In this document: positions 1 to 56,690 of the stretch, piece after piece
Position numbering within the stretch: the first letter of the stretch is position 1
Layout: each line of letters begins with the position of its first letter
Assembly (NCBI GenBank): GCA_040756745.1
Contig: JBFLYO010000003.1
Span: 15,072 to 79,071 of the forward strand
Direction of reading: 5' to 3'
DNA: 64,000 nt
Origin: Bacteroidota bacterium
Lineage (GTDB): Bacteria > Bacteroidota > Ignavibacteria > UBA10030 > UBA6906
The notes under the pieces: model-generated
What the model saw: the letters and a program-made list of their open reading frames with translations, nothing else
The model's database searches: none
What the model was told of the DNA's origin: nothing
Position numbers and translations under genes: made by a program

Positions 1-1
1 C

Positions 2-703
2 ACCGGCGACATCCGGAAGCGTCTCCGGACGCTGTTGGGCTGTTTTCTCTTCCGCGGCGACGACGTGTTCAAGAAGGTGGCCGTCCTGTCGGGCGGGGAA
101 AAGAGCCGCCTGGCGCTGGCAAAAATGCTCCTGCAACCAGCCAACCTGATCGTGCTTGACGAGCCGACAAACCACCTCGACATGCGGTCGAAGGGGGTGC
201 TGCGGGAGGCGCTCGCTGACTATGAGGGGAGCTTCGTCATCGTGTCGCACGACCGCGATTTCCTCGACCCGCTTGTGACAAAGGTGATCGAAGTGCGGAA
301 CGGCCGGCTCACGACCTATCTGGGGAATGTCAGTGACTATATCGATGCGAGACGCCGTGCGGATGAGACCGCCCTGGAACACCGTCCGGTTCGAAAACAT
401 CAACTCCCAACGGGTGCGAAGGAACGCAAACGGGCCGAGGCGGAGGAACGACAACGCCGCTATCGGCTGACCAAGCCATTGCAGGAGAAGATCGCGGCCC
501 TGGAACAGTCGCTCGAAGCCGCCGAGAAGGAGAAGGCGGAATTGGAACGGCTCATGGGCCAAGAGGATTTGTACAAAGACGCGGGACGAATAAGAACCGC
601 GACCGCCCGGTATCAGGAGCTGACGGGATTCCTCAACGATGGGTACTTCCGGTGGAACGAGCTCGTCAAAGAGCTCGAGCGACTGGCGGGGAACGGGGCG
701 TGA
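2..703 (+). CDS. ABC-F family ATPase (Uup/YheS/EttA-like), 5' end truncated by window edge
   Basis: The open frame runs from the window edge. It has the ABC signature [15 protein letters not shown] and a D-loop (LDEPTNHLD), followed by a charged coiled-coil C-terminal tail typical of ABC-F proteins. Confidence 0.8.
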
Positions 704-2222: not shown

Positions 2223-4700
2223 ATGGCGAGGAATTCGCTCACGCTGGTCATACTCCTGATCTCCTCACCCCTTCTCGGCGTGGCGGAACCCTCACCGAAG
2301 AAAGCCATTGCGGTCCGGACGCTCTCGCCTCCCGTTATTGACGGGCTGGTGGATGACCCGCAGTGGGCGACCGCCCCGCCGCTCCTCGATTTCACTCAGT
2401 TTGACCCTGTCGAAGGGGTCCTGCCGACCGAACTGACATCGGTGCGGCTCCTCTACGACAACAGCGCCCTGTACGTCGGGGTCATCTGTTACGATGCTCA
2501 TCCGGAACAGATCGTCCGCCAACTCACGCGCAGAGACCGTAGCTCGGAGGCGGACAGGTTCAGCGTGATGATCGACTCGTACTTTGACCGGCAGACGGCG
2601 TTCGTATTTGTCACGAACGTGTCCGGGGTGCAGAGCGACGGCGTGCTCTCACAGGACGGCGCGCTCTACGATCTGAGCTGGGACGCGGTCTGGACAGTAC
2701 GGACACGAGTGTATCGCGACGGCTGGTCGGCGGAATTCGAAATTCCCTACAACGCGATCAGGTTTGCGGAACAGGCGAGAGGCGTGTACACCTGGGGGAT
2801 CAACTTCCGGCGCTACATCAGCCGCAAGAAGGAAACCGACGAATGGGTCATGGTACCGCGGCGCGAGATGCTGCAGATCTCCCGCTGGGGGACCGTGGAG
2901 GGGATCAAGGACATTACACCGCCGTTGCATCTGGAACTCCTTCCGTATCTCTCCGGCACCGCATCGTACCAGACGGCATATCCCGGGCGCCCATGGAATT
3001 CATCGTACAGCTGGCAGGGAGGTGTTGATCTGAAATACGGCATCGAGAGGAATTTCACCGTCGATGCAACGATCAATCCCGACTTCGGACAGGTGGAAGT
3101 GGATCAGTCGGTGCTCAATCTCACGGTCTTTGAAACACGGTTCCCCGAGAAGCGGCCCTTCTTTGTTGAAGGGGCCCAGCTCTTCACGTTCGGATCCGCC
3201 GTGGATAACACGCCGCTCTCGGTCTTCTTTTCGCGGCGCGTCGGGAAACGTCCCTCCGGCAGTCCGTTCGTCGTCGAACCGCCGGGCGGCAGCATCGAAG
3301 AAAATCCGCAGGTGACGACAATCTTTGGGGCCGTGAAGTTATCCGGGCGATCCCATTCCGGCTTCTCCATGGGACTGCTGAGCGCGGCGACGGATGAGGA
3401 GAAGGCGGTGCTCGTTGACTCTGCCGGTGCGCGCACCGGCACCGTTACGGAGCCGCGGGCCTCGTACAATGTCGTACGGCTGAAGCAGGATTTCGACGGC
3501 GGCTCGTGGCTCGGCGCGATCGGAACGCTGGCATCACGCAGAACGATGAACCCTGCATTCGCCGGCGGATTGGATTGGAACATCCGGCTGGATGGCGGCA
3601 CCTACACGATCGACGGGTACGGTGCGGCGGCGCATTCTTCGACGGAACGGGTTCTGCGCGACGGTTCGTCGGGGCGCGACGGCGGGGCGGGCCGTGTGCT
3701 GTTCTCCCGCATTGCGGCGGAGCACTGGCTGTACACCGGATCGTTTGATTTCTATACGCGCTATTTCAATCTGAACGACCTGGGCTTCTTCGCCCAGCCG
3801 CATGACTACGGCGGATACACGCAGCTGCTCTACCGGGAGAATTTCGGAACCGGTCTCTTCCGGCGCTATGCGATCTCGGCCGTCCCGGAAGCGCGATGGA
3901 ACTGGGACGGCGTGTTGACGAACGCTTTGTCGGACCTGTCGTTCACCGGCGAGTTCATGAATTTCTGGCGGCTGGTGCTGGTCTACGACCTTGCGTTCCG
4001 CGCCTACGACGATGAAGAGCGGGGGATCATCGGCCTCTACCGGCGGCCACTCAGCCACACCTTCCGCACGCAGGTCAAAACCGACGAGCGCAGGAATATT
4101 TCTGCCACACTCACGCTGTCGTATGCATTTGATGAACGGCGGAAGCAGTCATGGAGCGGATCGCTCGGGCTCACCATCCGGCCGGTGTCATGGATTGAAT
4201 TGAGCCCGTCTCTGTTATGGACGCAAACGCGGGGCGAAGAGGCCTGGGCATTCCCGGCGGGGAACGTGTTCGATCCGGCGGTAAGCGCAACGCCCTTCAG
4301 CGTGTTCGGCGACAGGGATCTTGATCAGGTGGACGTGGAACTCCGGGGGATTGTCACATTCTCGAGGACGCTCTCGCTACAGTTCTTCTCGCAAATCCTG
4401 CTCGCCCGCGGCACATACCTGGACTACAGGCGATTCGATGGGCCACGAGCGATCCCGTATGACTTTGCCTCGTCTGCCGGGTACATTAGTCCCAATTTCA
4501 ATGAAGCGGTCTTCAACGCAAACGTTCTTCTCCGGTGGGAGTACCTGCCGGGGAGCACGCTGTATCTGGTCTGGACGCAGGGGAGGTTCGGCGATTCAGG
4601 CAATCCTGCGACAGGATTTGAGCGGCGGCTGCGCGATACGTTTGCGCTTCCGCACGATGACGCGCTGCTGCTGAAGATCAGCTACTGGTTCCCGCTCTGA
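2223..4700 (+). CDS. secreted DUF5916-type protein with N-terminal carbohydrate-binding family 9-like domain and large C-terminal beta-rich domain
   Basis: It has a signal peptide. The N-terminal region (DDPQWATAPP...LLYDNSALYVGVICYD) resembles CBM9-like domains of Bacteroidota DUF5916 proteins. The ORF is 825 aa with a clean start. Confidence 0.55.
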   Translation: MARNSLTLVILLISSPLLGVAEPSPKKAIAVRTLSPPVIDGLVDDPQWATAPPLLDFTQFDPVEGVLPTELTSVRLLYDNSALYVGVICYDAHPEQIVRQLTRRDRSSEADRFSVMIDSYFDRQTAFVFVTNVSGVQSDGVLSQDGALYDLSWDAVWTVRTRVYRDGWSAEFEIPYNAIRFAEQARGVYTWGINFRRYISRKKETDEWVMVPRREMLQISRWGTVEGIKDITPPLHLELLPYLSGTASYQTAYPGRPWNSSYSWQGGVDLKYGIERNFTVDATINPDFGQVEVDQSVLNLTVFETRFPEKRPFFVEGAQLFTFGSAVDNTPLSVFFSRRVGKRPSGSPFVVEPPGGSIEENPQVTTIFGAVKLSGRSHSGFSMGLLSAATDEEKAVLVDSAGARTGTVTEPRASYNVVRLKQDFDGGSWLGAIGTLASRRTMNPAFAGGLDWNIRLDGGTYTIDGYGAAAHSSTERVLRDGSSGRDGGAGRVLFSRIAAEHWLYTGSFDFYTRYFNLNDLGFFAQPHDYGGYTQLLYRENFGTGLFRRYAISAVPEARWNWDGVLTNALSDLSFTGEFMNFWRLVLVYDLAFRAYDDEERGIIGLYRRPLSHTFRTQVKTDERRNISATLTLSYAFDERRKQSWSGSLGLTIRPVSWIELSPSLLWTQTRGEEAWAFPAGNVFDPAVSATPFSVFGDRDLDQVDVELRGIVTFSRTLSLQFFSQILLARGTYLDYRRFDGPRAIPYDFASSAGYISPNFNEAVFNANVLLRWEYLPGSTLYLVWTQGRFGDSGNPATGFERRLRDTFALPHDDALLLKISYWFPL

Positions 4701-23277: not shown

Positions 23278-24645
23278 GTGGTCGACGCTTCCGCACACCT
23301 TCTCACTCCCGGGTTCGTCAACGTCCATTGCCACAGCGAGAGCATCATCCTCCGGTTTGTCACCGGACAACGCCCCTTTGCGGAGTGGCCCTCCCTTGCT
23401 CCTCTTCGGGAAGCAATTGCGACGCTCCGTTCCCCCGCAGTCGTGTCGCGCGTGGCGGAACTCTACACCGTGGCCGGCGTATACCACTTACTCGGCGGGA
23501 CTACGTCCCTCGGCGAATATCCCCTTCCCTATGAGCCGGAGGGAATCAACGCGACATTGACCGGCCTAGCACGCGGCGGTGTCAGACACAGAGTTGTCCT
23601 GCAGGAGTGGGAACAGATTGCCGCAGCGCGCGCCCGACCGGACGCGGCAACGTTGTTCACGATCTCGCTCGGTCCCGAAGAAGCATACACCGTTTACAGC
23701 TTCGAAAATCTCTTGCGTGCTGCGCGCGAGATCCAGTGCCCCCTGACGGCACACATCGGCGAACAACGACGGGAGACCGACACACTGCGGCGAAACTTCA
23801 AGAAAGCGCCACTCGCGGTCCTGAACGAGTTCGGTGCACTCTCGGCGTCAACCCAGATTCTCCATGCGAACCATCTGGGCGGCGCCGACCTTGATGCGGT
23901 GCGTGACGTGGACGGGACCATGACCCTCTGCGCCTGCTCGGGCGCGACGAAACAAACCGGGTATCCCGTGTTCACCCACCTGACGTCACACGATGTGCGG
24001 CTCAGTCTGGGGACGGACTGGGGGGTGGGGTCGATCCTCGGCGAGATCAAATTCCTCCGTGCCCTCCCGCAACTCGCACCGGGGGTTCGCCGCTTCCAAC
24101 CGACGGAATTGCTCCGCATGGGAACGATCAACGGCGCCCATGCCCTCGGGATCGCGCACCAAACCGGTTCGCTTGAGGTGGGGAAGAAGGCGGATCTGGT
24201 GATGTTCGCGCTGGATGATCTCCGGCTGCCTCCGTTGAGGCATTCCGCGACTTCCGCGGATCTCGCGTCTTTCCTGGTGGACCATATAGGCCCTGCGGCG
24301 ATCACCGACGTCATGGTGGACGGCAGGTTTCTCATCCGTAACCGGCGGCCGGGCAATCTCGACGAGGCGGAAATCAGACAACATGCACAATCACTATACA
24401 GCATGCTGGTATCGCACACGCCCATGGAGGAAGTCGTTCTGCGGGCAGTAAAATCTGATAGAGTATCCCTGGAAGAACCGAGTGCATTCCTCCGCGGCCC
24501 CCAGAGCTCTTCCCCGGATCCTGATCCCGCACATCGGGCGAACCTGGAACCCCCAACTGCCGCACCTCCTCCGGCACGCACATCACGCATGCCTGAACTT
24601 TCGCGCACCGTCAAGAAGGTCTTCGGCGAGGATGACGCGGGATGA
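23278..24645 (+). CDS. metal-dependent amidohydrolase (MtaD/SsnA/cytosine deaminase-like). The true N-terminus very likely extends upstream to about 23122-23143 without a canonical start codon
   Basis: HxH (VNVHCHS), a conserved His, and GKKADLV near the C-terminus. The in-frame upstream sequence [19 protein letters not shown]...LLIRDGRIVDI is the canonical amidohydrolase N-terminus but contains no ATG/GTG/TTG. Confidence 0.8.
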   Translation: MVDASAHLLTPGFVNVHCHSESIILRFVTGQRPFAEWPSLAPLREAIATLRSPAVVSRVAELYTVAGVYHLLGGTTSLGEYPLPYEPEGINATLTGLARGGVRHRVVLQEWEQIAAARARPDAATLFTISLGPEEAYTVYSFENLLRAAREIQCPLTAHIGEQRRETDTLRRNFKKAPLAVLNEFGALSASTQILHANHLGGADLDAVRDVDGTMTLCACSGATKQTGYPVFTHLTSHDVRLSLGTDWGVGSILGEIKFLRALPQLAPGVRRFQPTELLRMGTINGAHALGIAHQTGSLEVGKKADLVMFALDDLRLPPLRHSATSADLASFLVDHIGPAAITDVMVDGRFLIRNRRPGNLDEAEIRQHAQSLYSMLVSHTPMEEVVLRAVKSDRVSLEEPSAFLRGPQSSSPDPDPAHRANLEPPTAAPPPARTSRMPELSRTVKKVFGEDDAG

Positions 24646-25430
24646 GCGTCGCGTCGCGACACAAGCTCGGGTGTACAGTGGTTGCCGTGTGCCTGGCTGT
24701 TACCTCCCACCACGCTTTCGCACAGGGCTCAGCAGGCACAGCCGGCAAGCTTGAGCCGAGGTATCTCACCGACGTCCCGACTGCCGGGATGATCGATAAG
24801 GGAAATTTCGCGGTCGATATCGATTTCTACCGCGCGGGAGGCGTCCTCGTCGGATTCTCAGCCGGGATATTCAACCGCGTCAGCATGGGCATCTCGTACG
24901 GAGGGTCGAAGCTCATCGGCGGAGAATCGCCCGAGTTGAATGAAACGCCCGGCGTGAACGTGAAGATACGCGTGGCGGAAGAAGGGATGCTCTTTCCCGC
25001 GCTGGTTCTTGGCTTCGACTCGCAGGGGAAAGAGGGGTATATCAAATCCCTCAGCCGGTATGCGATCAAATCACCGGGGCTGTACGCGGTCGTCAGCAAG
25101 AACTACGCTGCGCTCGGCTACCTCAGTCTTCACGGTGGGGTGAACTACTCGTTCGAGCGTGCGGATGGCGATAAGGATCCGAACGTGTTTGTCGGCCTCG
25201 AAAAGACCATCGGACCGATCGTGTCGATGACGGTCGAGTACAGCCTCGGGCTGAACGACAACGGAGGTGACGCGATAGGGAGAGGAAAAGGGTACCTCAA
25301 TGCCGCACTGAAAGTGACTCTCGGCAGCGGCCTGACGCTCGGCGTGAACATGAAAGACCTCCTGAAGAACGGAGAGGATCTGAACATCGCCAACCGGACC
25401 GTGCACATTGAATTCTCAAAGCCCTTTTAG
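24642..25430 (+). CDS. outer membrane beta-barrel protein, function unknown
   Basis: Signal peptide (…HHAFAQGS), alternating beta-strand pattern and C-terminal aromatic (…SKPF). The start overlaps the upstream stop (ATGA). Confidence 0.5.
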   Translation: MSVASRHKLGCTVVAVCLAVTSHHAFAQGSAGTAGKLEPRYLTDVPTAGMIDKGNFAVDIDFYRAGGVLVGFSAGIFNRVSMGISYGGSKLIGGESPELNETPGVNVKIRVAEEGMLFPALVLGFDSQGKEGYIKSLSRYAIKSPGLYAVVSKNYAALGYLSLHGGVNYSFERADGDKDPNVFVGLEKTIGPIVSMTVEYSLGLNDNGGDAIGRGKGYLNAALKVTLGSGLTLGVNMKDLLKNGEDLNIANRTVHIEFSKPF

Positions 25431-25617
25431 CGTTGTAAACACAGGAAGGGCGCTGTGCTCTTAAATGAACGGTCGGTCGATAGGTGTCCAAAAATATGCA
25501 CATGGGAGAGCGCAACTCCTTCTCCCTCCTCTATTTTCAGGGCATTCTGATGGCACCCTTCTTGCAAACAAATTGGATACACCCACCGGACGGTCTCTCA
25601 ATGGAGGAGAGAACGAT

Positions 25618-26481
25618 ATGAACGCCAGATATGCAGCGATAGTCCTTGTTGCGATGGGAGCCCTCGGCGCCATCGCGCTCACAGGTTGTTACACTCAGTT
25701 CGGCACTCTTACCGAAGACAAGGAGCCCGGGGTCACGTCAGAGCCGGAGGAGTACGGGGAAGGAGTGACAGACGAAGAGTATGCCGAGGCACGGCAGCGG
25801 TTTTACTATGATTCGTATTATCCTGCTATCGATGTCGGGTTCTCGTTTGGGTGGGGCTATCCCTGGTACGGCTACCATCGTCCATGGTACGGCTACGGAT
25901 TTGGCTCCCCCTGGTATGGATACGGGTATCCCTGGTATTACGACCCGTTCTATTATGGCAATTACTATGGAGTCTATTCTCCATGGTACGTCGGGCCCTT
26001 CTACCGCGGCGGCTATTATTCTGATAGGGCACCGAGTGTGAACACGACCCGGAGGATCGGATCGACGAGGACGCTCGGCGGGACGCGCGGTTCCACGGAT
26101 TATCGGGGGACCTCCACCGAGTTCGCTCCGCTTCCGACGGGGAAGAGATCGAGTGGCACGGTGACCACGGGCTCATCCGCGCCGACGTCGGGCGGTCGGT
26201 CAGGGGTGAACACGGGCCGCAGGGGGACGGCGGGGGAGCGGCGGGATGGATCGCAGGGGCGCACGGTCAGCACTCCCCCAAAGGGAGGTTCGCGTGAGCA
26301 AGCGGCTCCTGCACCTTCTTCCGATACGCGACGAGGAAGTTCGGGTGGAAGCAGGACGCCGTCGTACACTCCACCACCTTCTTCTCCTCCTCCCTCAAGC
26401 GCTCCTTCTTCGGGGGGCAGCCGTGGCGGTGAAAGTCGCGGCGGAAGCGGTGGAGGCAACAGGGGCGGCGGCCGGCGGTAA
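25618..26481 (+). CDS. lipoprotein with Tyr/Trp/Gly-rich aromatic repeat block (PWYGY-type) and Ser/Gly/Arg/Pro-rich disordered tail
   Basis: RBS GGAGG before the ATG at 25618 and lipobox LTGC. The aromatic block is GWGYPWYGYHRPWYGYGFGSPWYGYGYPWYYDPFYYGNYYGVYSPWYVGPFY. The C-terminus is RGG/SGG-rich. Confidence 0.55.
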   Translation: MNARYAAIVLVAMGALGAIALTGCYTQFGTLTEDKEPGVTSEPEEYGEGVTDEEYAEARQRFYYDSYYPAIDVGFSFGWGYPWYGYHRPWYGYGFGSPWYGYGYPWYYDPFYYGNYYGVYSPWYVGPFYRGGYYSDRAPSVNTTRRIGSTRTLGGTRGSTDYRGTSTEFAPLPTGKRSSGTVTTGSSAPTSGGRSGVNTGRRGTAGERRDGSQGRTVSTPPKGGSREQAAPAPSSDTRRGSSGGSRTPSYTPPPSSPPPSSAPSSGGSRGGESRGGSGGGNRGGGRR

Positions 26482-26520
26482 TGCATCAGTGCACCCTCTG
26501 CTCTTGACACGAGGACGACA

Positions 26521-27948
26521 ATGAAACGATCAGTTGTTGCAGTAGCACTCGTTGCCCTGCTGGGGGGTTCCGCGCAGGCGCAGTTCCCCGAAGACGCTCT
26601 CCGGTTTGCGACGCCCGGGCTGGGTGTCGGTGCGCGGGCGATCGGCATGGGCGGCGCGTACACCGGCGTTGCCTCCGACTACAGCGCCATCTTCTGGAAC
26701 CCGGCGGGTCTGGCACAGGCGACGTACGGCGAATTCTCCGCCGGGCTGTCCTATGCGGCGAACGACAACACGAGCTCCTTCTTCAACGCCCAGCAAGGAT
26801 TCTCCACCAACGCCACAAACCTCAACACACTGGGGATTGTGCATCCCCTGCCGGTCCGACGGGGGAGCGCGGTCCTCGCGTTCGGCTTCCATCGGCAGAG
26901 CTCGTTTGCGAATGGCGTCTCCTTCTCGGGATTTAACGGCAACAGCTCCATCATCCAGACGTTTGCGCCGGACGGCGGCTTCTATCCTTCCGATCTGTCC
27001 GGCAATGTCGCCTATCAACTCTATCTTGCGAACCTGGATACCACGACGGGCAGGTTCGACAGTCCCATCAGGGACCGTCTGACACAGATCGGCAAGGTCG
27101 TGGAAGGTGGAGGGCTGAACAACTGGTCGATCGCCGGCGCAGTGGACGTGGCGAAGAACTTCGCGGCCGGGATGACGCTGACCTATCTGGGAGGGAGCTA
27201 CCGGTACGACAGGAATTACCGGGAAGAGGATACCCGTGGTGTCTACCAGGCGTTCCCGTTCGATTTCTCCTCAATGACGCTGGACGATTTCATTGAGAGC
27301 GACATCGCGGGATGGAATGCGAAGTTCGGAATCATGTTCCGGGAAGAGAACCGCTTCCGTATTGGATTTGCGGTGAGAACTCCCACAGAGTTCACCATCC
27401 GGGAGAAATTCGGGACGACCGCGCGCAGCTACTTTGACAACGGCGATATGAGACCGGCTGATGCCCCGTTCAACACAGAGTTTTCGAGCGAATATGACGT
27501 TGTGACCCCCTGGGTACTCAGCGGAGGAGTCTCGGTGATCATCCGGGACCTCGTGCTCTCGGGCGACGTCGAATTCACCGACTGGACTACGCTGGAATTC
27601 CGCAAAGCGAATTCCGACGTGATGGCGCAGAACGCGGACATGAAGACGATCTTCCAGCCGGCGGTGAATTACCGGGCCGGCGCGGAATTCGACATCCACG
27701 ATATCGGGCTCAGGCTCCGTGGCGGATTCGTCTATAACAAGTCTCCCTTCCGCAGCGACCCCGTCTCCTTTGACCAGAAGTATATCACCGGAGGGCTGGG
27801 AATCCTTGTGGGAGAGTCGACGATGATCGACATTGCGTATGCGCGGGGCTGGTGGGAGACCTTCGTGTACAATTATAACGCGACGTCGCGCGTGAACGAA
27901 TCGATGAAGACAAACACATTCATGCTGACGCTGACGCACCGCTTCTGA
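26521..27948 (+). CDS. FadL/PorV-like outer membrane beta-barrel protein
   Basis: Signal peptide. The N-terminal conserved block GMGGAYTGVASDYSAIFWNPAGLA is typical of FadL/TodX/PorV-like barrels. The terminal residues …THRF end in Phe. Confidence 0.6.
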   Translation: MKRSVVAVALVALLGGSAQAQFPEDALRFATPGLGVGARAIGMGGAYTGVASDYSAIFWNPAGLAQATYGEFSAGLSYAANDNTSSFFNAQQGFSTNATNLNTLGIVHPLPVRRGSAVLAFGFHRQSSFANGVSFSGFNGNSSIIQTFAPDGGFYPSDLSGNVAYQLYLANLDTTTGRFDSPIRDRLTQIGKVVEGGGLNNWSIAGAVDVAKNFAAGMTLTYLGGSYRYDRNYREEDTRGVYQAFPFDFSSMTLDDFIESDIAGWNAKFGIMFREENRFRIGFAVRTPTEFTIREKFGTTARSYFDNGDMRPADAPFNTEFSSEYDVVTPWVLSGGVSVIIRDLVLSGDVEFTDWTTLEFRKANSDVMAQNADMKTIFQPAVNYRAGAEFDIHDIGLRLRGGFVYNKSPFRSDPVSFDQKYITGGLGILVGESTMIDIAYARGWWETFVYNYNATSRVNESMKTNTFMLTLTHRF

Positions 27949-28018
27949 CCCATCAGGTTGCACGGAACGCGCCCGTTTGATATATTGAAGTCCATCGCTC
28001 GATGGACTTCATTGTTTT

Positions 28019-30433
28019 ATGACCAAGCGCGCGCGGGTGCTCACAGGCACGGTCGGGGTTCTCCTCGCCCTCCTCCTGGCCGCCGCCCTCTTCCTCCGCT
28101 ATCAGATTCGAAAGTCCTTTCCCGTTGACTCGGGCCTCCTGTCCGTCCCGGGACTCGACAGCGCGGTCACCGTGTCGCGAGACCCATACGGAGTTCCCGT
28201 CGTCGATGCGCGCAATGAACATGATCTGATGTTCGCCACGGGGTTCGTGCACGCACAGGACCGGCTCTGGCAAATGGACCTCGTTCGCCACGCGGGCGAG
28301 GGGCGTCTCTCGGAGCTCTTCGGACAATCCACCGTGCCGTTCGACAGGATGTTTCGCATCGTCGGGATCAGGCGTACTGCCGAAGCGATCGCTGCAACAA
28401 TGAGCCCCGCATCTCTGGAACGGCTCCAGTGGTATGCGGACGGGGTCAATGCGTGCATAGCGACAGCCGGCGGCGACCTCCCGGTGGAGTTCGATCTCCT
28501 CGGTTACCGGCCGGAACCCTGGACGCCGGTACACAGCATTCTCGTTGGACGTCTCATGGCGTGGGAACTGAACCTGTCCTGGTGGACCGATATCACGTAC
28601 GGCCTCGTCGCAGACAAAGTCGGCCCGCTGCGGGCCCTTGATCTGATGCCCGCCGATCCTCCGGAAGTCCCCCCCGCAGTTCCTGCAGGAGAATGGCGTG
28701 CGTATGCCTCCCTGGGGCGTTCGTATCTTCATGTCGCGCGGTCATACGCCGAGCGGTTCGGCAGAGCCTCCGTGATGGGGGGGAGCAATGCATGGGTGAT
28801 CGGCAGAGGGCGTTCATCGTCCGGGGCGGTCATCCTTGCCAACGATACCCACCTGCAGCTTGAATCTCCCTCGCGCTGGTACGAAATCCAGATGCAGATG
28901 CCCGGCATCCGCGTCCGGGGGATGTCGATCGCCGGTGTCCCCGCGGTGGTCTGCGGCAGGAACGGGTCTCTTGCGTGGGGGGTGACGAACGTGATGGCGG
29001 ACGACGCGGATTTCTATGCCGAGCAATTGGATTCCACGGGTGGAACCAGCTATGCCTACGGCGCCACATGGCGTCCCATCCGCGAGCTCCGGGAGGAGAT
29101 TAGCGTACTCGGTGACAGCGCCGTGCCACTTACGATCCGGATGACGCACCATGGACCTATCATTTCCGACGTTGACTATCCCCTGAAACGCGCACAGGTC
29201 CCCTATGTTGTGAGTATGCGATGGACCGGCAATGAACAAGACGACCAGTTCGGCGCGATCACTGCCATCAACCGTGCGACGAACTGGAAGGAATTTATTG
29301 CAGGGGTGCATGAATTCGCAGTGCCGGGACAGAACTTTGTGTATGGCGACTCCGCGGGGAACATCGGCTACTGGTGCGGCGCGAAGATTCCCCTCCGTGC
29401 CGCGCGGAGTTCATTGCTGCCGCTGCCCGGGTGGGACCCCGCCGCGGAGTGGCGGGGATACGTTCCCTTCGCGCGCCTCCCCCATCGCTTCAATCCTCCT
29501 GAGGGATTCATTGCGATGGCGAACAACAAGCTCGTGGACGATAGCTATCCCTACCGGATCAGCGATCTCTGGGAACCCTCCTCGCGCATCGAGCGGCTGA
29601 ATACGGTCCTCGGACGAACGGGCGACCGGTTTGCACTGCAGGATTTTGAATGGCTGCAGAATGACGCCTACTCGTACTATGCGAGGGAGATCGTCCCATT
29701 TATCCGGGAGGCATTCGCCGACAGTGGTGCGGGATTCCCCGGGAGCACACGCGTATTCGAGTATTTCAACAACTGGAACTTCCAGTTCGCGAAAGAAGAC
29801 ATTGCCACATCGATACTCCAGATGTTCCTCGTCCGGCTCGTGCGGAACGTCTACGCCGATGAGATGGGAGAGGATCTTCTCCATGACTGGGTGATGCTCT
29901 CCAACATTCCGCTCCGCGTAACGGCAAAGCTGCTCCGCGAGGGAACTTCTCCGTGGTTCGACGACGTCACGACTGAGGCTGTTGAAACGCGGGATGTCAT
30001 CATTCGCAGAAGTCTCCGCGAAGCGATGGAAGAACTCGACCATCGGTTCGGGAGCGATACGAAGCTCTGGCGCTGGGGAGAACTGCACACCGTCGTGCTG
30101 GAACATCCTTTCGGCAAACGCAGGCCGCTCGACCGGGTTTTCAACATCGGTCCCTTCCCGGTGAATGGTGCCTCGACGGCGCTGGTGAGCGGCGAATACA
30201 ATTTCAACGATCCCTTCAAGGTGACGGTCGGTCCTTCGTTCCGCCAGATCTTCGATTTTGCCGGAGACGGTCCCGTGCGGTCGGTGCTCCCCTCCGGTCA
30301 ATCGGGGCAGGCGTTTCACCTTCATTACGACGACCAGGTGCAGCTCTGGCTCAACGGAGGGTATCGCATCTCTTCCTTCTCTCACCCGGTGAGCGTGGGA
30401 GCGGCGATCCTCACACTGACGCCGCGTCAATGA
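28019..30433 (+). CDS. penicillin acylase family Ntn-hydrolase (penicillin amidase / acyl-homoserine-lactone acylase-like)
   Basis: An N-terminal TM/signal region is followed by the alpha-subunit motif FVHAQDRLWQMD and the beta-subunit nucleophile GGSNAWVIG. The protein is 804 aa. Confidence 0.85.
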   Translation: MTKRARVLTGTVGVLLALLLAAALFLRYQIRKSFPVDSGLLSVPGLDSAVTVSRDPYGVPVVDARNEHDLMFATGFVHAQDRLWQMDLVRHAGEGRLSELFGQSTVPFDRMFRIVGIRRTAEAIAATMSPASLERLQWYADGVNACIATAGGDLPVEFDLLGYRPEPWTPVHSILVGRLMAWELNLSWWTDITYGLVADKVGPLRALDLMPADPPEVPPAVPAGEWRAYASLGRSYLHVARSYAERFGRASVMGGSNAWVIGRGRSSSGAVILANDTHLQLESPSRWYEIQMQMPGIRVRGMSIAGVPAVVCGRNGSLAWGVTNVMADDADFYAEQLDSTGGTSYAYGATWRPIRELREEISVLGDSAVPLTIRMTHHGPIISDVDYPLKRAQVPYVVSMRWTGNEQDDQFGAITAINRATNWKEFIAGVHEFAVPGQNFVYGDSAGNIGYWCGAKIPLRAARSSLLPLPGWDPAAEWRGYVPFARLPHRFNPPEGFIAMANNKLVDDSYPYRISDLWEPSSRIERLNTVLGRTGDRFALQDFEWLQNDAYSYYAREIVPFIREAFADSGAGFPGSTRVFEYFNNWNFQFAKEDIATSILQMFLVRLVRNVYADEMGEDLLHDWVMLSNIPLRVTAKLLREGTSPWFDDVTTEAVETRDVIIRRSLREAMEELDHRFGSDTKLWRWGELHTVVLEHPFGKRRPLDRVFNIGPFPVNGASTALVSGEYNFNDPFKVTVGPSFRQIFDFAGDGPVRSVLPSGQSGQAFHLHYDDQVQLWLNGGYRISSFSHPVSVGAAILTLTPRQ

Positions 30434-43440: not shown

Positions 43441-44853
43441 TCACTTCTTCCGAAACGTCACCGCCCGCTCTGATGCGGTCTCCAGTTCCATGAGGAGTTG
43501 AACCAATTTGTTGTAGTCCTCAGGGGGGATAACCTGTGATGTGAGATCCAGCGTAGCCGTTAGGCGCACGTCGTCTCCATCCCGCTTGCAAGCAATTGAG
43601 CCTCGCCCACCTGCAAAACCGCGCATGGTGGTGTCTCTCGGAGACTCAGTTACCACGTACCCCTCTGGATGATGAATACGCCATTCGATCGTCATCGTGT
43701 ACGGTTCGGGAAACACGACGTCGTTCGTACGTGACGGGGCGAATAGCTCATCCCGCAGCTGCCGCAGCAGGTGATTGGCAGGTCGAACACTGACGTATTT
43801 TTCGATGGTGGTCACCGCTGCCCTTGAAGTTCCCTTCGCGGCAATACTGACAAGGCCCTCCTCAAAAAACGGCGAGTAGCGAAGATCGCCCGCGTTTTCA
43901 AGACATTTGCCCAACACTGCTCGCTCGAAAAACGACTCCAGGTCCTTTCCCTTCAGCGCATAACCCCCGTTGCGCCACTCTTCAACCGGAGCACCGCGTC
44001 CGCTCGTTGCCATGCTGTCGAGGACGGCGAACCGGTCGCTGAACCTGAGGTCATGTGACTCTCGGATCCAAGCCTCGCCTGCCCTTGCGGCAGGCGTGGT
44101 CACCGATTGACACCCGTCGTTGCTGATCACCATGGCGGTGATTCCCTTCAGGAACCATGGGGTGCTATAACGGTTCGGGATCGCCCTGTCGAAGTCATAC
44201 AGCCGTTCGACTCCCCCAATTCTTACCTGCACGCCGATCCTGTCAAACCATCGGACCGTCGGCACGCTTGTTTCATACACCCCCTTCCGCCTGTCGCGGA
44301 TCCACCCTGCCTTCGCGTCCACCTCCCATTGGCGTAGGATCTTGTAGAAGATCGCTGAAAGATCAGACGCATCGCCGCTCCCGTCATCGAAGACCTTATC
44401 CAGATCATCGACTAGCGGGTAGAGACTGTTCACAGGGTCAAGCACGATCGCATGTCGCAAGGCAGTATAAAGACTGTCAACGCGCGCAAAGGTAACCGGC
44501 GATCCTAATGGAGCAAGGCCCAGCTGCCTGATACGGGAGTCTTTGACGTGACCCTTGTCGAGGTTCTCCTCCCAGTATGTCTTCGCGAGCGAGGACCAGT
44601 CCGTAGAACCACGAAACGCCAGATCGGACACAAATGCCGTCATCATGGAGAGTTCTTCAAATGGCGGTGCGTACGGTTCGGCGGGGATCGCATTGAGATT
44701 TCTCACGCTCCAGAACCGTGTGTCTCCCGATCCGAGCGTCGTTGCGATTTCAGAGATCTTCGGCTCGCCGATGCGGTCGGCAGGGAAGCTGAATACCCGG
44801 ATTTCATCACGCGCCTGACCGGTAATCGCGAGATTCGAAAAGAGCACGGGCAT
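43441..44853 (-). CDS. DUF3858-like / degenerate transglutaminase-like C-terminal module protein (B2). It is in-frame with and 2 codons downstream of the B1 stop
   Basis: 470 aa with no signal peptide. The C-terminal region resembles the DUF3858 end of Bacteroidota DUF3857-TGase-DUF3858 proteins. It may be the C-terminal part of a gene interrupted by a TAG codon. Confidence 0.5.
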   Translation of the reverse strand: MPVLFSNLAITGQARDEIRVFSFPADRIGEPKISEIATTLGSGDTRFWSVRNLNAIPAEPYAPPFEELSMMTAFVSDLAFRGSTDWSSLAKTYWEENLDKGHVKDSRIRQLGLAPLGSPVTFARVDSLYTALRHAIVLDPVNSLYPLVDDLDKVFDDGSGDASDLSAIFYKILRQWEVDAKAGWIRDRRKGVYETSVPTVRWFDRIGVQVRIGGVERLYDFDRAIPNRYSTPWFLKGITAMVISNDGCQSVTTPAARAGEAWIRESHDLRFSDRFAVLDSMATSGRGAPVEEWRNGGYALKGKDLESFFERAVLGKCLENAGDLRYSPFFEEGLVSIAAKGTSRAAVTTIEKYVSVRPANHLLRQLRDELFAPSRTNDVVFPEPYTMTIEWRIHHPEGYVVTESPRDTTMRGFAGGRGSIACKRDGDDVRLTATLDLTSQVIPPEDYNKLVQLLMELETASERAVTFRKK

Positions 44854-52802: not shown

Positions 52803-52967
52803 GATGTAATATAGAGAATAGGGGAAGGAGTTTCAAACACGCGGTGGAACTTCGCTGCGTACAAGCCGCTTTACAGTGCGGGGACGTCCCCTGACCCCGT
52901 TTTGATTCTGAGGACTCAAAACACTACTTTAGCCAGGCAGAACGGAACCAGTGGACAGGAGTCGGGC

Positions 52968-54527
52968 GTGCGCCTCACCAGGAAAATCCTCATTGCGATC
53001 GTCCCCGTCTTTCTCATCTTCATCACCGTCAGCGTCGTGCTCCAGAATCAGTTCCAGGAACGGGAAATGATGGAAGAGGCACAGGTTGCAGCACACACCT
53101 ACGCCGACATCGTCAAAGAATCGCTCGTCAGCATGATGCTGAAGAACTACGAGGTGGACAGCAGCTTCATCGACCGCGTGAATATGTTGAAGCAGATTGA
53201 TACGCTTCGCGTGTTCGTCAATAATCTGAGAATCCGTGATGAGCTGCTGACTCCGGAACGGTACCTGCGCCTGCAACTGAAGTATGCGACCCTTCGCCCG
53301 AAAGACATGATAGAGAAGCGGGTGCTGGAAGGCGGCGAGCCCTTCTTCGAGCGGGAAGGAGAGTACTTCAGGGGCGTGATTCCCTTCACGGCCACGTCGG
53401 TCTGCCAGAAATGCCACGCCGTCCCGGTCGGGTACGCGCTGGGTGCGGCGGACATCCGGATCTCGTTTGCGCGGGTGTCGGCGGCCACGGCTCAGAACTG
53501 GAGCCGGTCGCTGATCATCTTTGTGGTCTTCGCGGCTGTCGTGATCGGCGTCGCGGTGATGATGTTCCGGATCTTCGTTTCCAAGCCCGTGCGCGGCCTG
53601 GTCGGCGCTACGTTTCAGATCAGCCGGGGGAACCTCGACACCCCGGTACCGGGGGCGGAGGTGCTTCGTCCCGGCGAAGACGAGCTTGCCGTGCTGTCCC
53701 TCCGATTCGATGAAATGAGAATCTCCCTCAAGGAAAAGATCGACCAGCTTGACCACGCCAACCGGTCGCTCTCCGACCGAAATACCGAGCTCGAAAGAGC
53801 TCTGGACCGCCTCCGCAAGGCGCAGGAGGATCTCGTCCGCAGCGAGCGTCTTGCCGTGACAGGGAAGCTGACCGCACAACTTTCACACGAGATCAACAAT
53901 CCGATCCACAATATCCAGAGTCTCCTGGAGTCCGCCCTGCGCAAGGTGAACGGCAACGTCGCCCTCCGGGAACTCATCGGCGTCGCTCTTGAAGAAGTGT
54001 CCCGGATGGCAAAGCTGACCCGCCAGATGCTCGATTTCTACCGGGGGTCAGTGGTCGAACACGAGCAGGATGAAGTGGATCTCCGGAGTCTTCTTGTGGA
54101 AACCGCGCGCAGCTACACGCCCCAGCTCGAACAGGCGGGGATCACGGTGGTCCTCGAAGCGAACGAGCCGGTTCCCCCCGTGCGTGGGTCGCGCGACAAG
54201 CTGAAGCAGGTGCTGATCAATCTCGTGATCAATGCGCGCGACGCCATGGACTCTGGCGGGATGCTGGCCCTGCGCTGCCGGGCAAACCGTGGGAGCGTCT
54301 GCGTCGAGGTTGCGGACACCGGCGTGGGGATTCCGGAAGAGAACATGGGGCGGATCTTCGAGGCGTTTTTCACCACCAAGAAGGAAGTGAGTGGCGTGGG
54401 TCTGGGACTAGCCGTCAGCTATGGCATCGTCCAGGCGCACCAGGGCACCATCGCCGTCCGCAGCACAATCGGGAAAGGGACGACGTTCATTATCGAACTC
54501 CCGGCATCGGCCGACGTCCATGTCTGA
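52968..54527 (+). CDS. sensor histidine kinase with periplasmic CxxCH heme-binding PAS-like (Tll0287/DUF3365-like) sensor domain
   Basis: TM helix, then a sensor region carrying VCQKCHAVPVGYALGAADI (CxxCH), a second TM, HAMP, H-box LSHEINNPIHNI and G-boxes DTGVGIPEEN and GVGLGLAVSYG. The start was chosen at the GTG at 52968 (RBS AGGAG). The track begins at the TTG at 52902. Confidence 0.8.
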   Translation: MRLTRKILIAIVPVFLIFITVSVVLQNQFQEREMMEEAQVAAHTYADIVKESLVSMMLKNYEVDSSFIDRVNMLKQIDTLRVFVNNLRIRDELLTPERYLRLQLKYATLRPKDMIEKRVLEGGEPFFEREGEYFRGVIPFTATSVCQKCHAVPVGYALGAADIRISFARVSAATAQNWSRSLIIFVVFAAVVIGVAVMMFRIFVSKPVRGLVGATFQISRGNLDTPVPGAEVLRPGEDELAVLSLRFDEMRISLKEKIDQLDHANRSLSDRNTELERALDRLRKAQEDLVRSERLAVTGKLTAQLSHEINNPIHNIQSLLESALRKVNGNVALRELIGVALEEVSRMAKLTRQMLDFYRGSVVEHEQDEVDLRSLLVETARSYTPQLEQAGITVVLEANEPVPPVRGSRDKLKQVLINLVINARDAMDSGGMLALRCRANRGSVCVEVADTGVGIPEENMGRIFEAFFTTKKEVSGVGLGLAVSYGIVQAHQGTIAVRSTIGKGTTFIIELPASADVHV

Positions 54528-55920
54528 TCAGGCATCCATCCTCGTGGTCGACGACGACAAGGCCTTCCGCGTCGCCACCAAAACTCTGCTGGAAGATGAA
54601 GGATTTGTCGTAGCGACTGCTGCAAGCGGCGACGAAGCGCTGACGAAGATGGAGACAGAGCAGTTCGATCTGGTGCTCTCTGATATGGTAATGGGAAAGA
54701 TGAGCGGCGTGGAACTGCTTGCCAACGTCAAAGCGAAGCGCCCCGACCTCCCCGTCATCATGGTCACCGGCTTCGGCTCCATTCAGACGGCGGTGGAGGC
54801 GATGCGGCTTGGTGCGTCGGATTACCTGACGAAACCATCCAACAACGACGAGCTGCTCATCAAGATCCGCCGCGCCCTGGAGATGCAGGACAAGGAGCGT
54901 CAGCTCCGCTCGCTTCGTGAGGAGCTGCAGGGGACCTACAGCTTCGGCAACATGGTGAGCCGCAGCCCGGTAATGCAGGAAGTGATACGTCAGGTGCAGC
55001 AGGTGGCCGACACCGACGTGACGATCCTCATCCAGGGGGAAAGCGGGACAGGCAAGGAGCTCGTCGCGCGCGCGCTCCACTTTAACAGCAAACGCTCCCT
55101 GAAACCGTTCGTCGTCGTCAACTGCTCGGCGATCCCCGAAAATCTGCTGGAGAGCGAACTCTTTGGGTATGAGCGCGGCGCCTTCACGGGAGCGACCCGC
55201 CAGCGGGCAGGAAAGTTCGAAGAAGCGAACAACGGTACACTCTTCCTGGATGAGATCGGGGACATCTCACCCGCCGTTCAGACCAAGCTGCTCCGGGCCC
55301 TTCAGGATAAAACCTTTGAGCGGGTCGGCGGAACGGGATCCATCAGCGTGAACACCCGCGTCGTTGCTGCAACCAACCGGAACCTTGATGTGATGGTCCG
55401 TCAGGGGGACTTCCGCGAGGATCTGTTCTATCGCCTCAATGTCTTCCCGATTGTACTTCCTCCGCTGCGCGAACGACTTGAAGACATCCCGCTCCTGACG
55501 GAACATTTCCTGCACCGCCATGCGGACCTGGCAGGAGGGACGGTGAAGTCAGTGGCCACCGCCGTGATCAGCGACATGATGAACTATACGTGGCGGGGGA
55601 ACATCCGCGAACTGGAGAATCTGATCAAACGCGCCATCATCAAGACCCCCGGCGAGGTGATCACGTCGCTCGAACTTCCCAACGTCGAGCCCGCCGCGCC
55701 GTCATCCGGGGAGCCCGCCGAGGGCGTCAACCTGAACACTCCGTATAAAGACTACATCGGCAGCATCATCCGCCATGCCGAGGAGCGGTACCTGGTCCGC
55801 ATGCTCCGCCTCTGCAAGGGGAACATCAACCAGGTGGCGAAGCTGATGGACGTAGACCGGAAGACCATTTATCGCAAGATGTCCGACTATTCGATCGATC
55901 CGGCCTCGTTCCGCGAATGA
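54520..55920 (+). CDS. sigma-54-dependent response regulator (NtrC family: REC, AAA+ with GAFTGA, Fis-type HTH)
   Basis: Receiver (ILVVDDD...DLVLSDMVM), Walker A GESGTGKE, GAFTGA, ESELFGYERGAFTGA and a C-terminal HTH. The ATG at 54520 overlaps the kinase stop by 8 nt. Confidence 0.9.
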   Translation: MSDQASILVVDDDKAFRVATKTLLEDEGFVVATAASGDEALTKMETEQFDLVLSDMVMGKMSGVELLANVKAKRPDLPVIMVTGFGSIQTAVEAMRLGASDYLTKPSNNDELLIKIRRALEMQDKERQLRSLREELQGTYSFGNMVSRSPVMQEVIRQVQQVADTDVTILIQGESGTGKELVARALHFNSKRSLKPFVVVNCSAIPENLLESELFGYERGAFTGATRQRAGKFEEANNGTLFLDEIGDISPAVQTKLLRALQDKTFERVGGTGSISVNTRVVAATNRNLDVMVRQGDFREDLFYRLNVFPIVLPPLRERLEDIPLLTEHFLHRHADLAGGTVKSVATAVISDMMNYTWRGNIRELENLIKRAIIKTPGEVITSLELPNVEPAAPSSGEPAEGVNLNTPYKDYIGSIIRHAEERYLVRMLRLCKGNINQVAKLMDVDRKTIYRKMSDYSIDPASFRE

Positions 55921-56061
55921 TCCCGCGTGTGGCATCACCGCCACACTACCGCTCGCCAGCGAGTTCCCTCCTGTGGTTTTGCTGCCCCACTCCCCGGTCG
56001 ACCTCGGTTGAATCGCCGCAAAAACCCCCCTCCCCGACTTCACCGATTGGTTTTCCTCCCT

Positions 56062-56077
56062 TGGCACAGTGGTTGAC
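56062..56077 (+). promoter_or_regulatory. candidate sigma-54 (-24/-12) promoter element TGGCACAGTGGTTGAC upstream of the ECF sigma gene
   Basis: TGGCAC-N5-TTGA compared with the consensus TGGCAC-N5-TTGCW. The GG to -12 spacing is correct but the -12 dinucleotide is GA rather than GC. It lies 53 nt upstream of the ATG at 56130 and directly downstream of the sigma-54 activator gene. Confidence 0.4.
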
Positions 56078-56129
56078 CCTGTTGATCCTACCAAACGACC
56101 ACGACGGCATACATACAGGGGGAACGGCC

Positions 56130-56690
56130 ATGATGACGACACGGTTCGAGCGGGAAGCCCTGACGCAGCTACCGGCGCTCCGTCACTACGCAGAGTCGCT
56201 GACGAAGGACCGGCAGCGATCTGACGACCTGGTGCAGGAAACGATGTTGAAAGCCCTCCGCTATTTCGACACGTACAGGGAGGGGACGAACTGCAGGGCG
56301 TGGCTGTTCCAGATATGCAAACACTCGTTCATCAACGAGTACCGTCGAAAGGAATACGAGCCGATCCTCGTCGATTTCCAGTCGGAGGCCGGCGGCGGAG
56401 ATGATGCGGGGGAATGGCATGGCGTGCACCCTTCGCTCAACGATGCCTCCGCGCAGCAGGATGACGGCGCGATGCTTGGAGACGAGGTGACCTCGGCGCT
56501 GCGAGGTCTCCCCCACGACTACCAGACCGTGCTGCTCCTGAACGACATCGAGGGATACACGTACGACGAGATTGCGGCGTTCATGCAGGTGCCCGTCGGC
56601 ACGATTCGCTCCCGTATCCACCGTGCCCGCAAGATGCTCGCGGCGAGGCTGGAGCGCTATGCTGAAGAGCTGGGATACAGACAGAACTAG
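56130..56690 (+). CDS. RNA polymerase sigma factor, ECF (sigma-70 group 4) family
   Basis: Region 2 (LVQETMLKALRYFDTYREGTNCRAWLFQICKHSFINEYRR) and region 4 (LLLNDIEGYTYDEIAAFMQVPVGTIRSRIHRAR). The start was chosen at MMTTRFE with RBS GGGGGAA. The track ORF extends upstream with no domain content. Confidence 0.85.
   Translation: MMTTRFEREALTQLPALRHYAESLTKDRQRSDDLVQETMLKALRYFDTYREGTNCRAWLFQICKHSFINEYRRKEYEPILVDFQSEAGGGDDAGEWHGVHPSLNDASAQQDDGAMLGDEVTSALRGLPHDYQTVLLLNDIEGYTYDEIAAFMQVPVGTIRSRIHRARKMLAARLERYAEELGYRQN

Follow-up and report, generated by a model that had tools for sequence, protein, structure and literature searches.

A disordered, aromatic-rich lipoprotein encoded between two outer-membrane barrels: a candidate inducible envelope module of Ignavibacteria-type bacteria

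We analysed a 64,000-nucleotide (nt) stretch of DNA from a Bacteroidota bacterium, hereafter the window (assembly GCA_040756745.1, contig JBFLYO010000003.1, positions 15,072–79,071, forward strand), in which a lipoprotein gene of extreme composition lies between the genes of two outer-membrane β-barrels, a small FapF-like barrel upstream and a FadL-superfamily barrel downstream. The order of the three genes is the same in every related locus in which it could be called, the layout of the lipoprotein is kept in 78 species-level proteins, and a sigma-54-type promoter-like element precedes the lipoprotein gene in most relatives. The explanation that we tentatively favour, while giving it somewhat less than an even chance, is a barrel–lipoprotein envelope complex that would act as an inducible, lineage-specific outer-membrane module of Ignavibacteria-type bacteria of the Fibrobacteres–Chlorobi–Bacteroidetes (FCB) group.

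That the coupling of a FadL-type barrel to a lipoprotein is central to the outer membrane of FCB bacteria is a recent insight, gained from BamG–BamH, PorV–PorU and PorQ–PorZ, and the module would add a third, uncharacterised example, in which the partner is almost wholly disordered and a FapF-type homologue is always adjacent. Neither such barrel–lipoprotein pairs nor barrels of the FapF type are new in themselves; what is new is the lipoprotein family, its extreme composition, its fixed pairing with both types of barrel and the sigma-54-type control. In this lineage, which is largely uncultured, the small-barrel gene occurs in about 390 species-level genomes; examination of 80 loci confirmed the trio in 73. 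Current annotation of the three genes offers only 'hypothetical', 'YjbH domain' or 'fatty acid transporter'. If the complex forms, it would be a compact system for handling a disordered lipoprotein at the outer membrane, and it could show that FapF-type barrels have clients beyond amyloid subunits.

A gene order conserved across relatives

An open reading frame (ORF) check found the three genes co-oriented on the forward strand (Table 1), encoding proteins of 262, 287 and 475 residues, at the coordinates that a first-pass annotation, made by a model from the sequence, had given them. The longest possible ORF for the middle gene opens at 25465; we take ATG 25618 as the start because it is supported by the N-termini of homologues and by a GGAGG 9 nt upstream, which backs the choice already made in the first-pass annotation. 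That annotation had also described the trio as tightly spaced. This is true of the lipoprotein and FadL-like genes, which are 39 nt apart (median 32 nt from stop to start among relatives), and not of the small-barrel and lipoprotein genes, which are separated by 187 nt (median 188) that hold the promoter-like element.

Species-representative genomes were scanned with the small-barrel alignment, which gave 390 confirmed loci, of which 80 were fetched, and gene order was called with hidden Markov models for the three proteins wherever the fetched DNA reached far enough downstream. In 73 of 73 such loci, labelled Ignavibacteria, Ignavibacteriota or Bacteroidota, the genes run from small barrel through lipoprotein to FadL-like barrel; the first-pass annotation had hung its reading on the genes being co-located in related genomes, and in none of these loci were they apart. 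Even for a distant member of the lipoprotein family (E of about 3e-10, on a short contig) the FadL-like gene still lies 3′, and upstream only a 69-residue gene fragment is visible. The flanks vary: of 64 loci, 44 have cysS upstream, 24 have the amidohydrolase found in the window and 19 have neither of them, while an acylase lies downstream in 58 of 66. As the order of the trio is fixed while its flanks vary, the trio is the most stable unit of a broadly syntenic region.

A lipoprotein family of extreme composition

The product of the middle gene carries a signal peptide, MNARYAAIVLVAMGALGAIALTG (residues 1–23), and a lipobox, LTG before the lipidated C24, so that the mature protein starts CYTQFG; the lipobox conforms to the bacterial pattern [LVI][ASTVI][GAS]C. 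A word-indexed search with this protein returned 35 homologues of 271–364 residues. An exhaustive profile search with its N-terminal 160 residues returned 416 clusters (50% identity), of which 140 reach E ≤ 1e-10, and nearly all of the 150 matches listed begin at or near the N-terminus of the protein. An exact look-up of the window lipoprotein found no identical record, whereas both barrels of the window have exact matches.

The same layout is kept in 78 species-level proteins: a Cys-Tyr-Thr start, an acidic linker, a short helix, an aromatic block, an (xTRxxG)x3 motif and an Arg/Ser/Gly/Pro tail, with a C-terminus of the form GGSRGGxRR that usually ends in RR. Because it recurs in 78 species-level genomes, the layout is not due to chance, and this recurrence together with the ribosome-binding site rules out a spurious ORF. 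In an alignment with 28 homologues, G23, C24, Y25, T26, Y55, R145, G148, R151, G154, R282 and R287 are invariant, and at the lipidation site [GASTL]C[YF]T is found in 83 of 83 loci, with the consensus G-C-Y-T(-Q). Further family motifs are 'EY..AR.RFY.D.YYP' and a frequent PPPS stretch.

Where the sequence itself is not conserved, its composition is, as profiled by tenths of the mature protein and expressed as medians over the 78 species-level proteins (Table 1). The mature protein contains 10% Arg and 0.7% Lys, the tenths that make up the tail contain 0–6% Asp/Glu, and the net charge has a median of +10 (range −1 to +37). Across the family, aromatic residues make up 38–57% of the densest 60-residue stretch, and the window lipoprotein peaks at a fraction of 0.50; the corresponding median for the 91 window ORFs of at least 200 residues is 0.12. 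Since codons for Tyr, Phe and Trp are AT-rich and the genome has a G+C content of about 60%, we infer that the aromatic block is maintained by selection on composition.

AlphaFold2, run on the window lipoprotein with the 28-homologue alignment, gave a mean predicted local distance difference test score (pLDDT) of 51.7, with 178 of 287 residues below 50; the signal peptide and the helix at residues 52–67 are the only confident regions. Alignment, composition and this largely disordered model bear out the earlier description of a lipoprotein in which an acidic linker and a dense Tyr/Trp/Gly/Pro block precede a basic, disordered tail. Its composition had been called unusual, and indeed the protein has no match in Pfam or NCBIfam even at E ≤ 1, none of 28 family members matches Pfam at E ≤ 0.1, and single-sequence and profile searches of the PDB found no relative. 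The homologue search thus yields a family and no known enzyme fold, so that a fold of that kind is rejected.

Several known classes of envelope protein were also set aside. A functional amyloid of the curlin or Fap type (CsgA or FapC), with imperfect repeats rich in Gln, Asn, Gly and Ala, is not indicated, as none of the 28 members has such a Pfam match and the block contains 11–15% Pro. The lipoprotein lacks the C-terminal domain of type IX secretion system (T9SS) substrates, has no transmembrane segment before the final RR such as a PEP-CTERM or rhombosortase signal would need, and ends in Arg, not in the Lys that Lpp-type cross-linking requires. In composition it resembles eukaryotic low-complexity proteins of the FUS type, which likewise combine a Tyr/Gly-rich block with an Arg/Gly/Ser-rich tail and prefer Arg over Lys, and in which Tyr/Arg pairing drives cation–π self-association. 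The likeness is one of composition and not of homology, and it is incomplete, for the block here is rich in Trp and Pro and the protein is a lipid-anchored component of a bacterial envelope.

Two further features of the family deserve mention. In 49 of 78 members the first 70 mature residues include, just before the helix, the triplet D-[ST]-[AILVMT], which is the sequon for general O-glycosylation in Bacteroidetes (for example, ADSVSDEEY); at the aligned position the window protein reads GEGVTDEEY (residues ~45–52, nt ~25750–25775), without the triplet. In four genomes (L072:5576–6211, L076:6050–6805, L078:4327–4938 and L080:6371–7513), the genes of the aromatic lipoprotein and the FadL-like barrel are separated by an additional lipoprotein gene. 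The product of this extra gene has a GCYT start, an STRG motif in a Ser/Thr/Pro-rich tail and a CXXCH haem motif (NCLNCHS or NCLSCHS), and the shared GCYT and STRG suggest module-specific handling signals. The fetched loci held nine other lipoproteins, too few to judge whether the Cys-Tyr-Thr start is specific to the module.

Transcription signals

The sigma-54 consensus, TGGCAC-N5-TTGCW, has GG at −24 and GC at −12, and the element that lies 51 nt before the ATG of the lipoprotein gene (Table 1) is its only exact occurrence in the window. Among relatives, TGGCA[CT]-N5-TTG[CT] was found in 64 of 72 orthologous intergenic regions between the small-barrel and lipoprotein genes, at a median of 40 nt before the start codon, and it is kept in GC-rich and AT-rich genomes alike despite the divergence of the surrounding sequence. 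Outside this intergenic region, the same motif turned up ahead of the small-barrel gene in 1 of 61 loci and past the FadL-like gene in 0 of 53. A palindrome similar to the one in the window lies 5′ of the −24 element in 41 of 64 regions (1.8 ± 1.4 in shuffles), its centre a median of 81 nt upstream, and is plausibly a candidate activator-binding site. At the other end, in the 90 nt that follow the stop codon of the FadL-like gene, the strongest hairpin has a median of −18.9 kcal/mol and reaches −16 or lower in 53 of 73 loci; the controls were weaker, with medians of −10.5 inside the FadL-like gene (3 of 73 loci) and −9.0 after the small-barrel stop (7 of 73).

Taken together, the conserved promoter-like element, the palindrome and the hairpin make the lipoprotein and FadL-like genes look like an inducible two-gene operon of sigma-54 type. 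This would split the trio into two expression units, a division that the first-pass annotation had missed. The small-barrel gene begins within the last 4 nt of the upstream amidohydrolase ORF, and the barrel would be expressed with its upstream neighbours, with no evident terminator before the sigma-54-type element. A scan for the sigma-70 consensus found nothing on the forward strand between the genes of the trio, and the literature that we searched on sigma-54 and Bacteroidetes outer-membrane genes offered nothing useful. The conserved element and palindrome provide a handle for finding the activator and its signal.

A sigma-54-dependent promoter needs both sigma-54 and an AAA+ activator protein. 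Elsewhere in the window, the region 52902–56690 encodes a histidine kinase (52902–54527), an NtrC-type activator (54421–55920) with REC, Sigma54_activat and HTH_8 domains, and a sigma-70 factor of the extracytoplasmic function type (55917–56690).

A FapF-like barrel upstream

The small barrel is much better conserved than the lipoprotein, with 818 matches, of which the 120 listed are 57–100% identical. The AlphaFold2 model built from these 120 sequences (pLDDT 79.4, predicted template modelling score 0.75) has 12 strands, which replaces the 8–10-strand type initially proposed. In a Foldseek search with this model the first 15 matches are all FapF chains (E of 3e-7 to 1.5e-5), followed by NanC at 2.4e-5, so that, as modelled, the protein is a 12-stranded barrel whose fold is closest to that of FapF. 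The modelled strands alternate hydrophobic residues facing the lipid with Gly/Ser/Asn-rich residues facing the lumen, and conservation is higher on the lumen face (0.84) than on the lipid face (0.65).

Sequence and profile searches of the PDB returned nothing for this barrel. Pfam YjbH is matched weakly by 107 of 120 members, in the N-terminal part of the profile (best E 1.4e-7), and no other family is matched; the window protein itself scores 14.5 bits against YjbH/GfcD (PF06082), below the cut-off of 24, over profile positions 10–99 of 658. Its 262 residues form a single barrel and not the two-barrel architecture of YjbH/GfcD, which spans about 660 positions. The N-terminal barrel of YjbH/GfcD is reported to belong to the FapF family, and GfcA, encoded in the same operon, to be natively unstructured (Solan et al.). 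The weak sequence match to YjbH and the structural match to FapF therefore agree on a stand-alone FapF-type barrel.

The likeness to known systems stops there. FapF has an N-terminal coiled-coil, which the small barrel lacks (about 27 residues precede strand 1), and identity between the two is about 14%. Fap, Gfc and Yjb operons carry fapA–E or gfc/yjb partners, and none of these was recognised among the scanned neighbours, which comprise the amidohydrolase, the lipoprotein, the FadL-like barrel and the acylase; a Fap amyloid secretion system is thus not indicated. Fap amyloid subunits, furthermore, have Gln/Asn-rich repeats, whereas the lipoprotein here is lipid-anchored and rich in aromatic residues and Arg.

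A FadL-superfamily barrel downstream

The downstream barrel has a signal peptide (AQA/QFPEDALR), NPAGLA at residues 60–65 and a C-terminal Phe, and it scores 44.4 bits against Pfam Toluene_X (PF03349; cut-off 29.7). An NPA motif in the N-terminal hatch is a hallmark of FadL/Toluene_X proteins, and N60, P61 and A62 are invariant in 27 orthologues. Of the curated models, BamG (NCBIfam NF053685, an equivalog) is the best for all 27 orthologues, as a weak match (best E 7e-26); the window protein reaches 66.5 bits against its cut-off of 250. PorV_fam (NF033709) gives 41.6 bits against a cut-off of 90, with PorV2, which also matches 27 of 27 orthologues, ranking next, and the N-terminal region GARxLGMG...NPAGLA matches both the PorV and the PorV2 models. 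A PorV/PorQ family assignment is not warranted by a score below cut-off, with no T9SS genes among the scanned window ORFs. Curated transporter models score lower still (AupA, 19 bits), and none of the six NCBIfam families at E ≤ 1 is named for FadL. Against the PDB, the single sequence gave a spurious match only, and the family profile matched TbuX (3e-6), FadL (3e-5), PgBAM chain F (0.036) and PorV (0.039). Pfam, NCBIfam, the 27 orthologues and the PDB profile all fit the description of a FadL/PorV-like barrel in the first-pass annotation. By its sequence the protein is a FadL-superfamily barrel, apparently nearest to the BamG/PorV group of FCB bacteria and a member of neither family. The dedicated export or anchoring partner that had also been suggested for the lipoprotein receives indirect support, in that the small barrel is nearest to FapF, a transporter of amyloid polypeptides in Pseudomonas, and this one to BamG and PorV, which dock surface proteins.

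The matches to transporters bring in a first alternative, uptake of hydrophobic compounds, in which the downstream barrel would be a channel of the FadL/TodX/TbuX type, the small barrel a COG4313-type 12-strand channel and the aromatic-rich lipoprotein a means of capturing hydrophobic or aromatic substrates at the membrane surface, with fatty acids supplied by the downstream N-terminal nucleophile (Ntn) hydrolase of the penicillin/acyl-homoserine lactone (AHL) acylase family. The Toluene_X score above cut-off, the invariant NPA, TbuX and FadL as best solved-structure matches and an acylase gene 3′ of the module in 58 of 66 loci all speak for it, as does the expression of tbuX and xylN from sigma-54 promoters. 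We nonetheless consider it unlikely. The curated transporter models fall far below BamG and PorV, a conserved hairpin separates the acylase from the lipoprotein/FadL-like unit, and no catabolic genes lie near, the window being one of housekeeping genes, so that the catabolic operon of TbuX, TodX and XylN has no counterpart here. We know of no lipoprotein partner for those channels, and transport would leave a conserved, disordered, Arg-rich tail of about 150 residues unexplained.

A second alternative starts from the BamG matches and would make the two genes a divergent accessory pair of the β-barrel assembly machinery (BAM), with the FadL-like barrel as this lineage's BamG and the disordered lipoprotein in place of BamH. 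BamG is the best curated model for all 27 orthologues, BamG/BamH have been reported in six of seven other FCB phyla (PMC12611786), and the module is present, among core genes, wherever the DNA allowed a look. This reading is hardly likely all the same: the scores come to a quarter of what the BamG model demands, one would not expect an essential housekeeping machine to be under a conditional sigma-54 promoter, and BamH is a folded, two-domain protein (PMC12611786), whereas the lipoprotein here is disordered.

In both barrels Gln directly follows the signal-peptidase site: AFA/QGSAG in the small barrel (24723–24725; 64 of 72 orthologues) and AQA/QFPED in the FadL-like barrel (26581–26583; 38 of 38). 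Such Gln-first barrels fit the Bacteroidetes 'Q-rule' of an N-terminal pyroglutamate.

Membrane affinity and the side of the membrane

Interfacial energies were computed on the Wimley–White interfacial scale. The aromatic block (residues 70–135) gives −26 kcal/mol and the best 60 residues of the family a median of −23.5, as compared with −6.4 to +8.7 kcal/mol for twelve other window proteins, both barrels included. With so low an interfacial energy, the block would be expected to bind firmly at a membrane interface, and it is not a transmembrane segment.

In Bacteroidota, lipoproteins are exported to the surface on a signal of at least two acidic residues among the six after the lipidated Cys (PMC12578637). 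This signal is absent in 83 of 83 family members, 67 of them without any acidic residue at these positions and 16 with a single one; in the window lipoprotein the six residues are YTQFGT, with none. Surface exposure by the usual route is therefore not predicted, under a rule that was derived in Bacteroidia and Flavobacteriia and is not validated for Ignavibacteria.

The lipoprotein could accordingly be a tether or spacer that faces the periplasm, lodged in the inner leaflet of the outer membrane with its aromatic block on the interface of that leaflet and its Arg-rich tail bound to peptidoglycan or anionic phospholipids, the barrels being partners only in sharing the membrane. The lack of the export signal is what such a protein would show, and its basic mature part, with Arg far above Lys, and its housekeeping genomic context fit as well. 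We judge this rather improbable, given that the export rule comes from other lineages, that the C-terminal residue is not the Lys of Lpp-type cross-linking, and that neither the coupling to a BamG/PorV-like barrel nor the invariant FapF-like neighbour would be explained.

A proposed barrel–lipoprotein complex

In the barrel–lipoprotein complex that we favour, the sigma-54-type promoter and upstream palindrome would drive a lipoprotein/FadL-like unit that ends in the hairpin, and the two products would form a stable complex. The invariant lipidated N-terminus, Cys-Tyr-Thr-Gln-x-Gly, may dock on the FadL-like barrel much as the lipidated N-tail of BamH is held in a groove of BamG (PMC12611786). 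Bt1785/Bt1786, the paralogous pair BamG2/BamH2 of B. thetaiotaomicron (PMC12578637), have consecutive locus tags, which suggests that their genes are neighbours, as in the module. BamG–BamH is a close parallel, an FCB FadL-superfamily barrel paired with a lipoprotein, and BamG is the best curated model for the module barrel. It differs in that BamH is folded and carbohydrate-binding-like, whereas the module has a disordered lipoprotein, sigma-54-type expression and no known link to BamA. PorV and PorQ, the docking and shuttle barrels of the T9SS, belong to the same FadL sub-group and carry surface proteins, not small molecules; here the difference is that the module lipoprotein has no T9SS C-terminal domain.

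The small barrel might be a third subunit, a part of the proposal that we hold more loosely. Its conserved, Gly/Ser/Asn-lined lumen could accommodate or pass an unfolded chain, either the helix at residues 52–67 or the (xTRxxG)x3 motif, by analogy with FapF and its client, autotransporter barrels and the BamP loop in BamA. FapF handles an unfolded client, and RcsF, threaded through OmpA/C/F, is a precedent for a lipoprotein segment in a barrel lumen. The BamP loop inside BamA is likewise an extended lipoprotein segment in such a lumen (PMC12611786). RcsF and BamP serve as precedents only, as the module barrels belong to other families. As for the remainder of the chain, its composition strongly predicts that the Tyr/Trp/Phe block partitions into the membrane interface or stacks on the aromatic girdles of the barrels, and suggests that the Arg-rich, nearly Lys-free tail may attach to anionic polymers of the envelope or to aromatic blocks on adjacent copies. 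Overall, the module would remodel the envelope in an inducible manner and make it more cohesive or adhesive.

Several observations weigh against such a complex. The docking of the lipoprotein on the barrels is drawn by analogy, the scores for BamG and PorV lie below their cut-offs, and the best-scoring solved structures are those of two transporters, TbuX and FadL. The export signal is missing throughout the family. The −12 element reads TTGT, not TTGC, in 43 of 64 loci, and rpoN was not seen within the window. The wider neighbourhood is largely syntenic, so that some of the linkage may be inherited and not selected. Finally, the small barrel stands outside the sigma-54 unit, as the 1 of 61 upstream motifs and the 4-nt amidohydrolase overlap indicate, and may therefore be only a conserved neighbour.

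A further reading, which we regard as very unlikely taken as a whole, makes the lipoprotein a lipid-anchored, disordered envelope component that forms a gel- or condensate-like coat on the outer membrane. Self-association would be driven by cation–π contacts between the Tyr/Trp block and the Arg-rich tail; the surface would be reached by threading through the FapF-type barrel, with the lipid end held by the BamG/PorV-like barrel; and a sigma-54 activator would switch the system on. GCYT/STRG would then serve as a handling signal peculiar to the module, which some genomes also employ for the small CXXCH haem lipoprotein.

Feature coordinates and neighbouring genes

Table 1. Coordinates and composition of the three genes, the regions of the lipoprotein and the candidate transcription signals (positions in the window; tenths refer to family medians)
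Feature	Nucleotides	Residues	Strand	Basis or description
Small outer-membrane barrel gene	24642–25430		+	262 aa; signal peptide AFA/QGSAG; 12 predicted strands; FapF-family-like
Palindrome TGTCC-N8-GCACA	25485–25502		+	candidate sigma-54 activator site
Sigma-54-type −24/−12 element TGGCACCCTTCTTGCA	25551–25566		+	51 nt before ATG of lipoprotein gene
Lipoprotein precursor gene	25618–26481		+	287 aa; ORF, ribosome-binding site GGAGG, family alignment
Acidic linker		25–51	+	23–27% Asp/Glu in first two tenths of mature window protein
Helix		52–67	+	AlphaFold2
Aromatic block	25825–26022	70–135	+	48–50% Tyr/Trp/Phe
(xTRxxG)x3 motif	26044–26091	143–158	+	hexad-like; family alignment
Arg/Ser/Gly/Pro tail		after motif to GGGRR-COOH	+	SRGG/NRGG repeats
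FadL-superfamily barrel gene	26521–27948		+	475 aa; Pfam Toluene_X above cut-off
Terminator-like hairpin	27986–28011		+	11-bp stem then TTGTTTT, after FadL-like gene
Mature protein, tenths 1–2				20–26% Asp/Glu
Mature protein, tenths 3–4				44% Tyr/Trp/Phe; Gly and Pro 11–15% each
Mature protein, tenths 5–10				11–21% Lys/Arg, 22–29% Ser/Thr, 12–25% Gly

An Rfam scan over 24500–28100 gave a single sub-threshold chance match, and none of the window ORFs that were scanned encodes a BAM or type IX secretion component. The FadL-like gene is followed 3′ by a gene of the penicillin-amidase family, a SIR2-family gene and pyruvate kinase, and the remaining window holds housekeeping genes, among them ATP synthase, ffh, recN, cysS, ligA and rodZ.

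The penicillin-amidase/AHL-acylase-family gene (28019–30433) encodes an N-terminal hydrophobic segment, and its stop overlaps the start of the SIR2-family gene; such an acylase follows the module in 58 of 66 related loci, and a conserved hairpin stands between the two. Upstream, the amidohydrolase ORF (TRZ/ATZ-type, 23278–24645) encodes 455 residues, as against 472–534 in orthologues, and the Pro/Ala-rich, low-complexity C-terminal tail of its product is encoded up to the 4-nt overlap with the small-barrel start. Other window ORFs include an 825-residue DUF5916 protein (2223–4700), a 470-residue ORF without a Pfam match (43441–44853) and a tyrosine recombinase of the XerC/D type (60922–61836).

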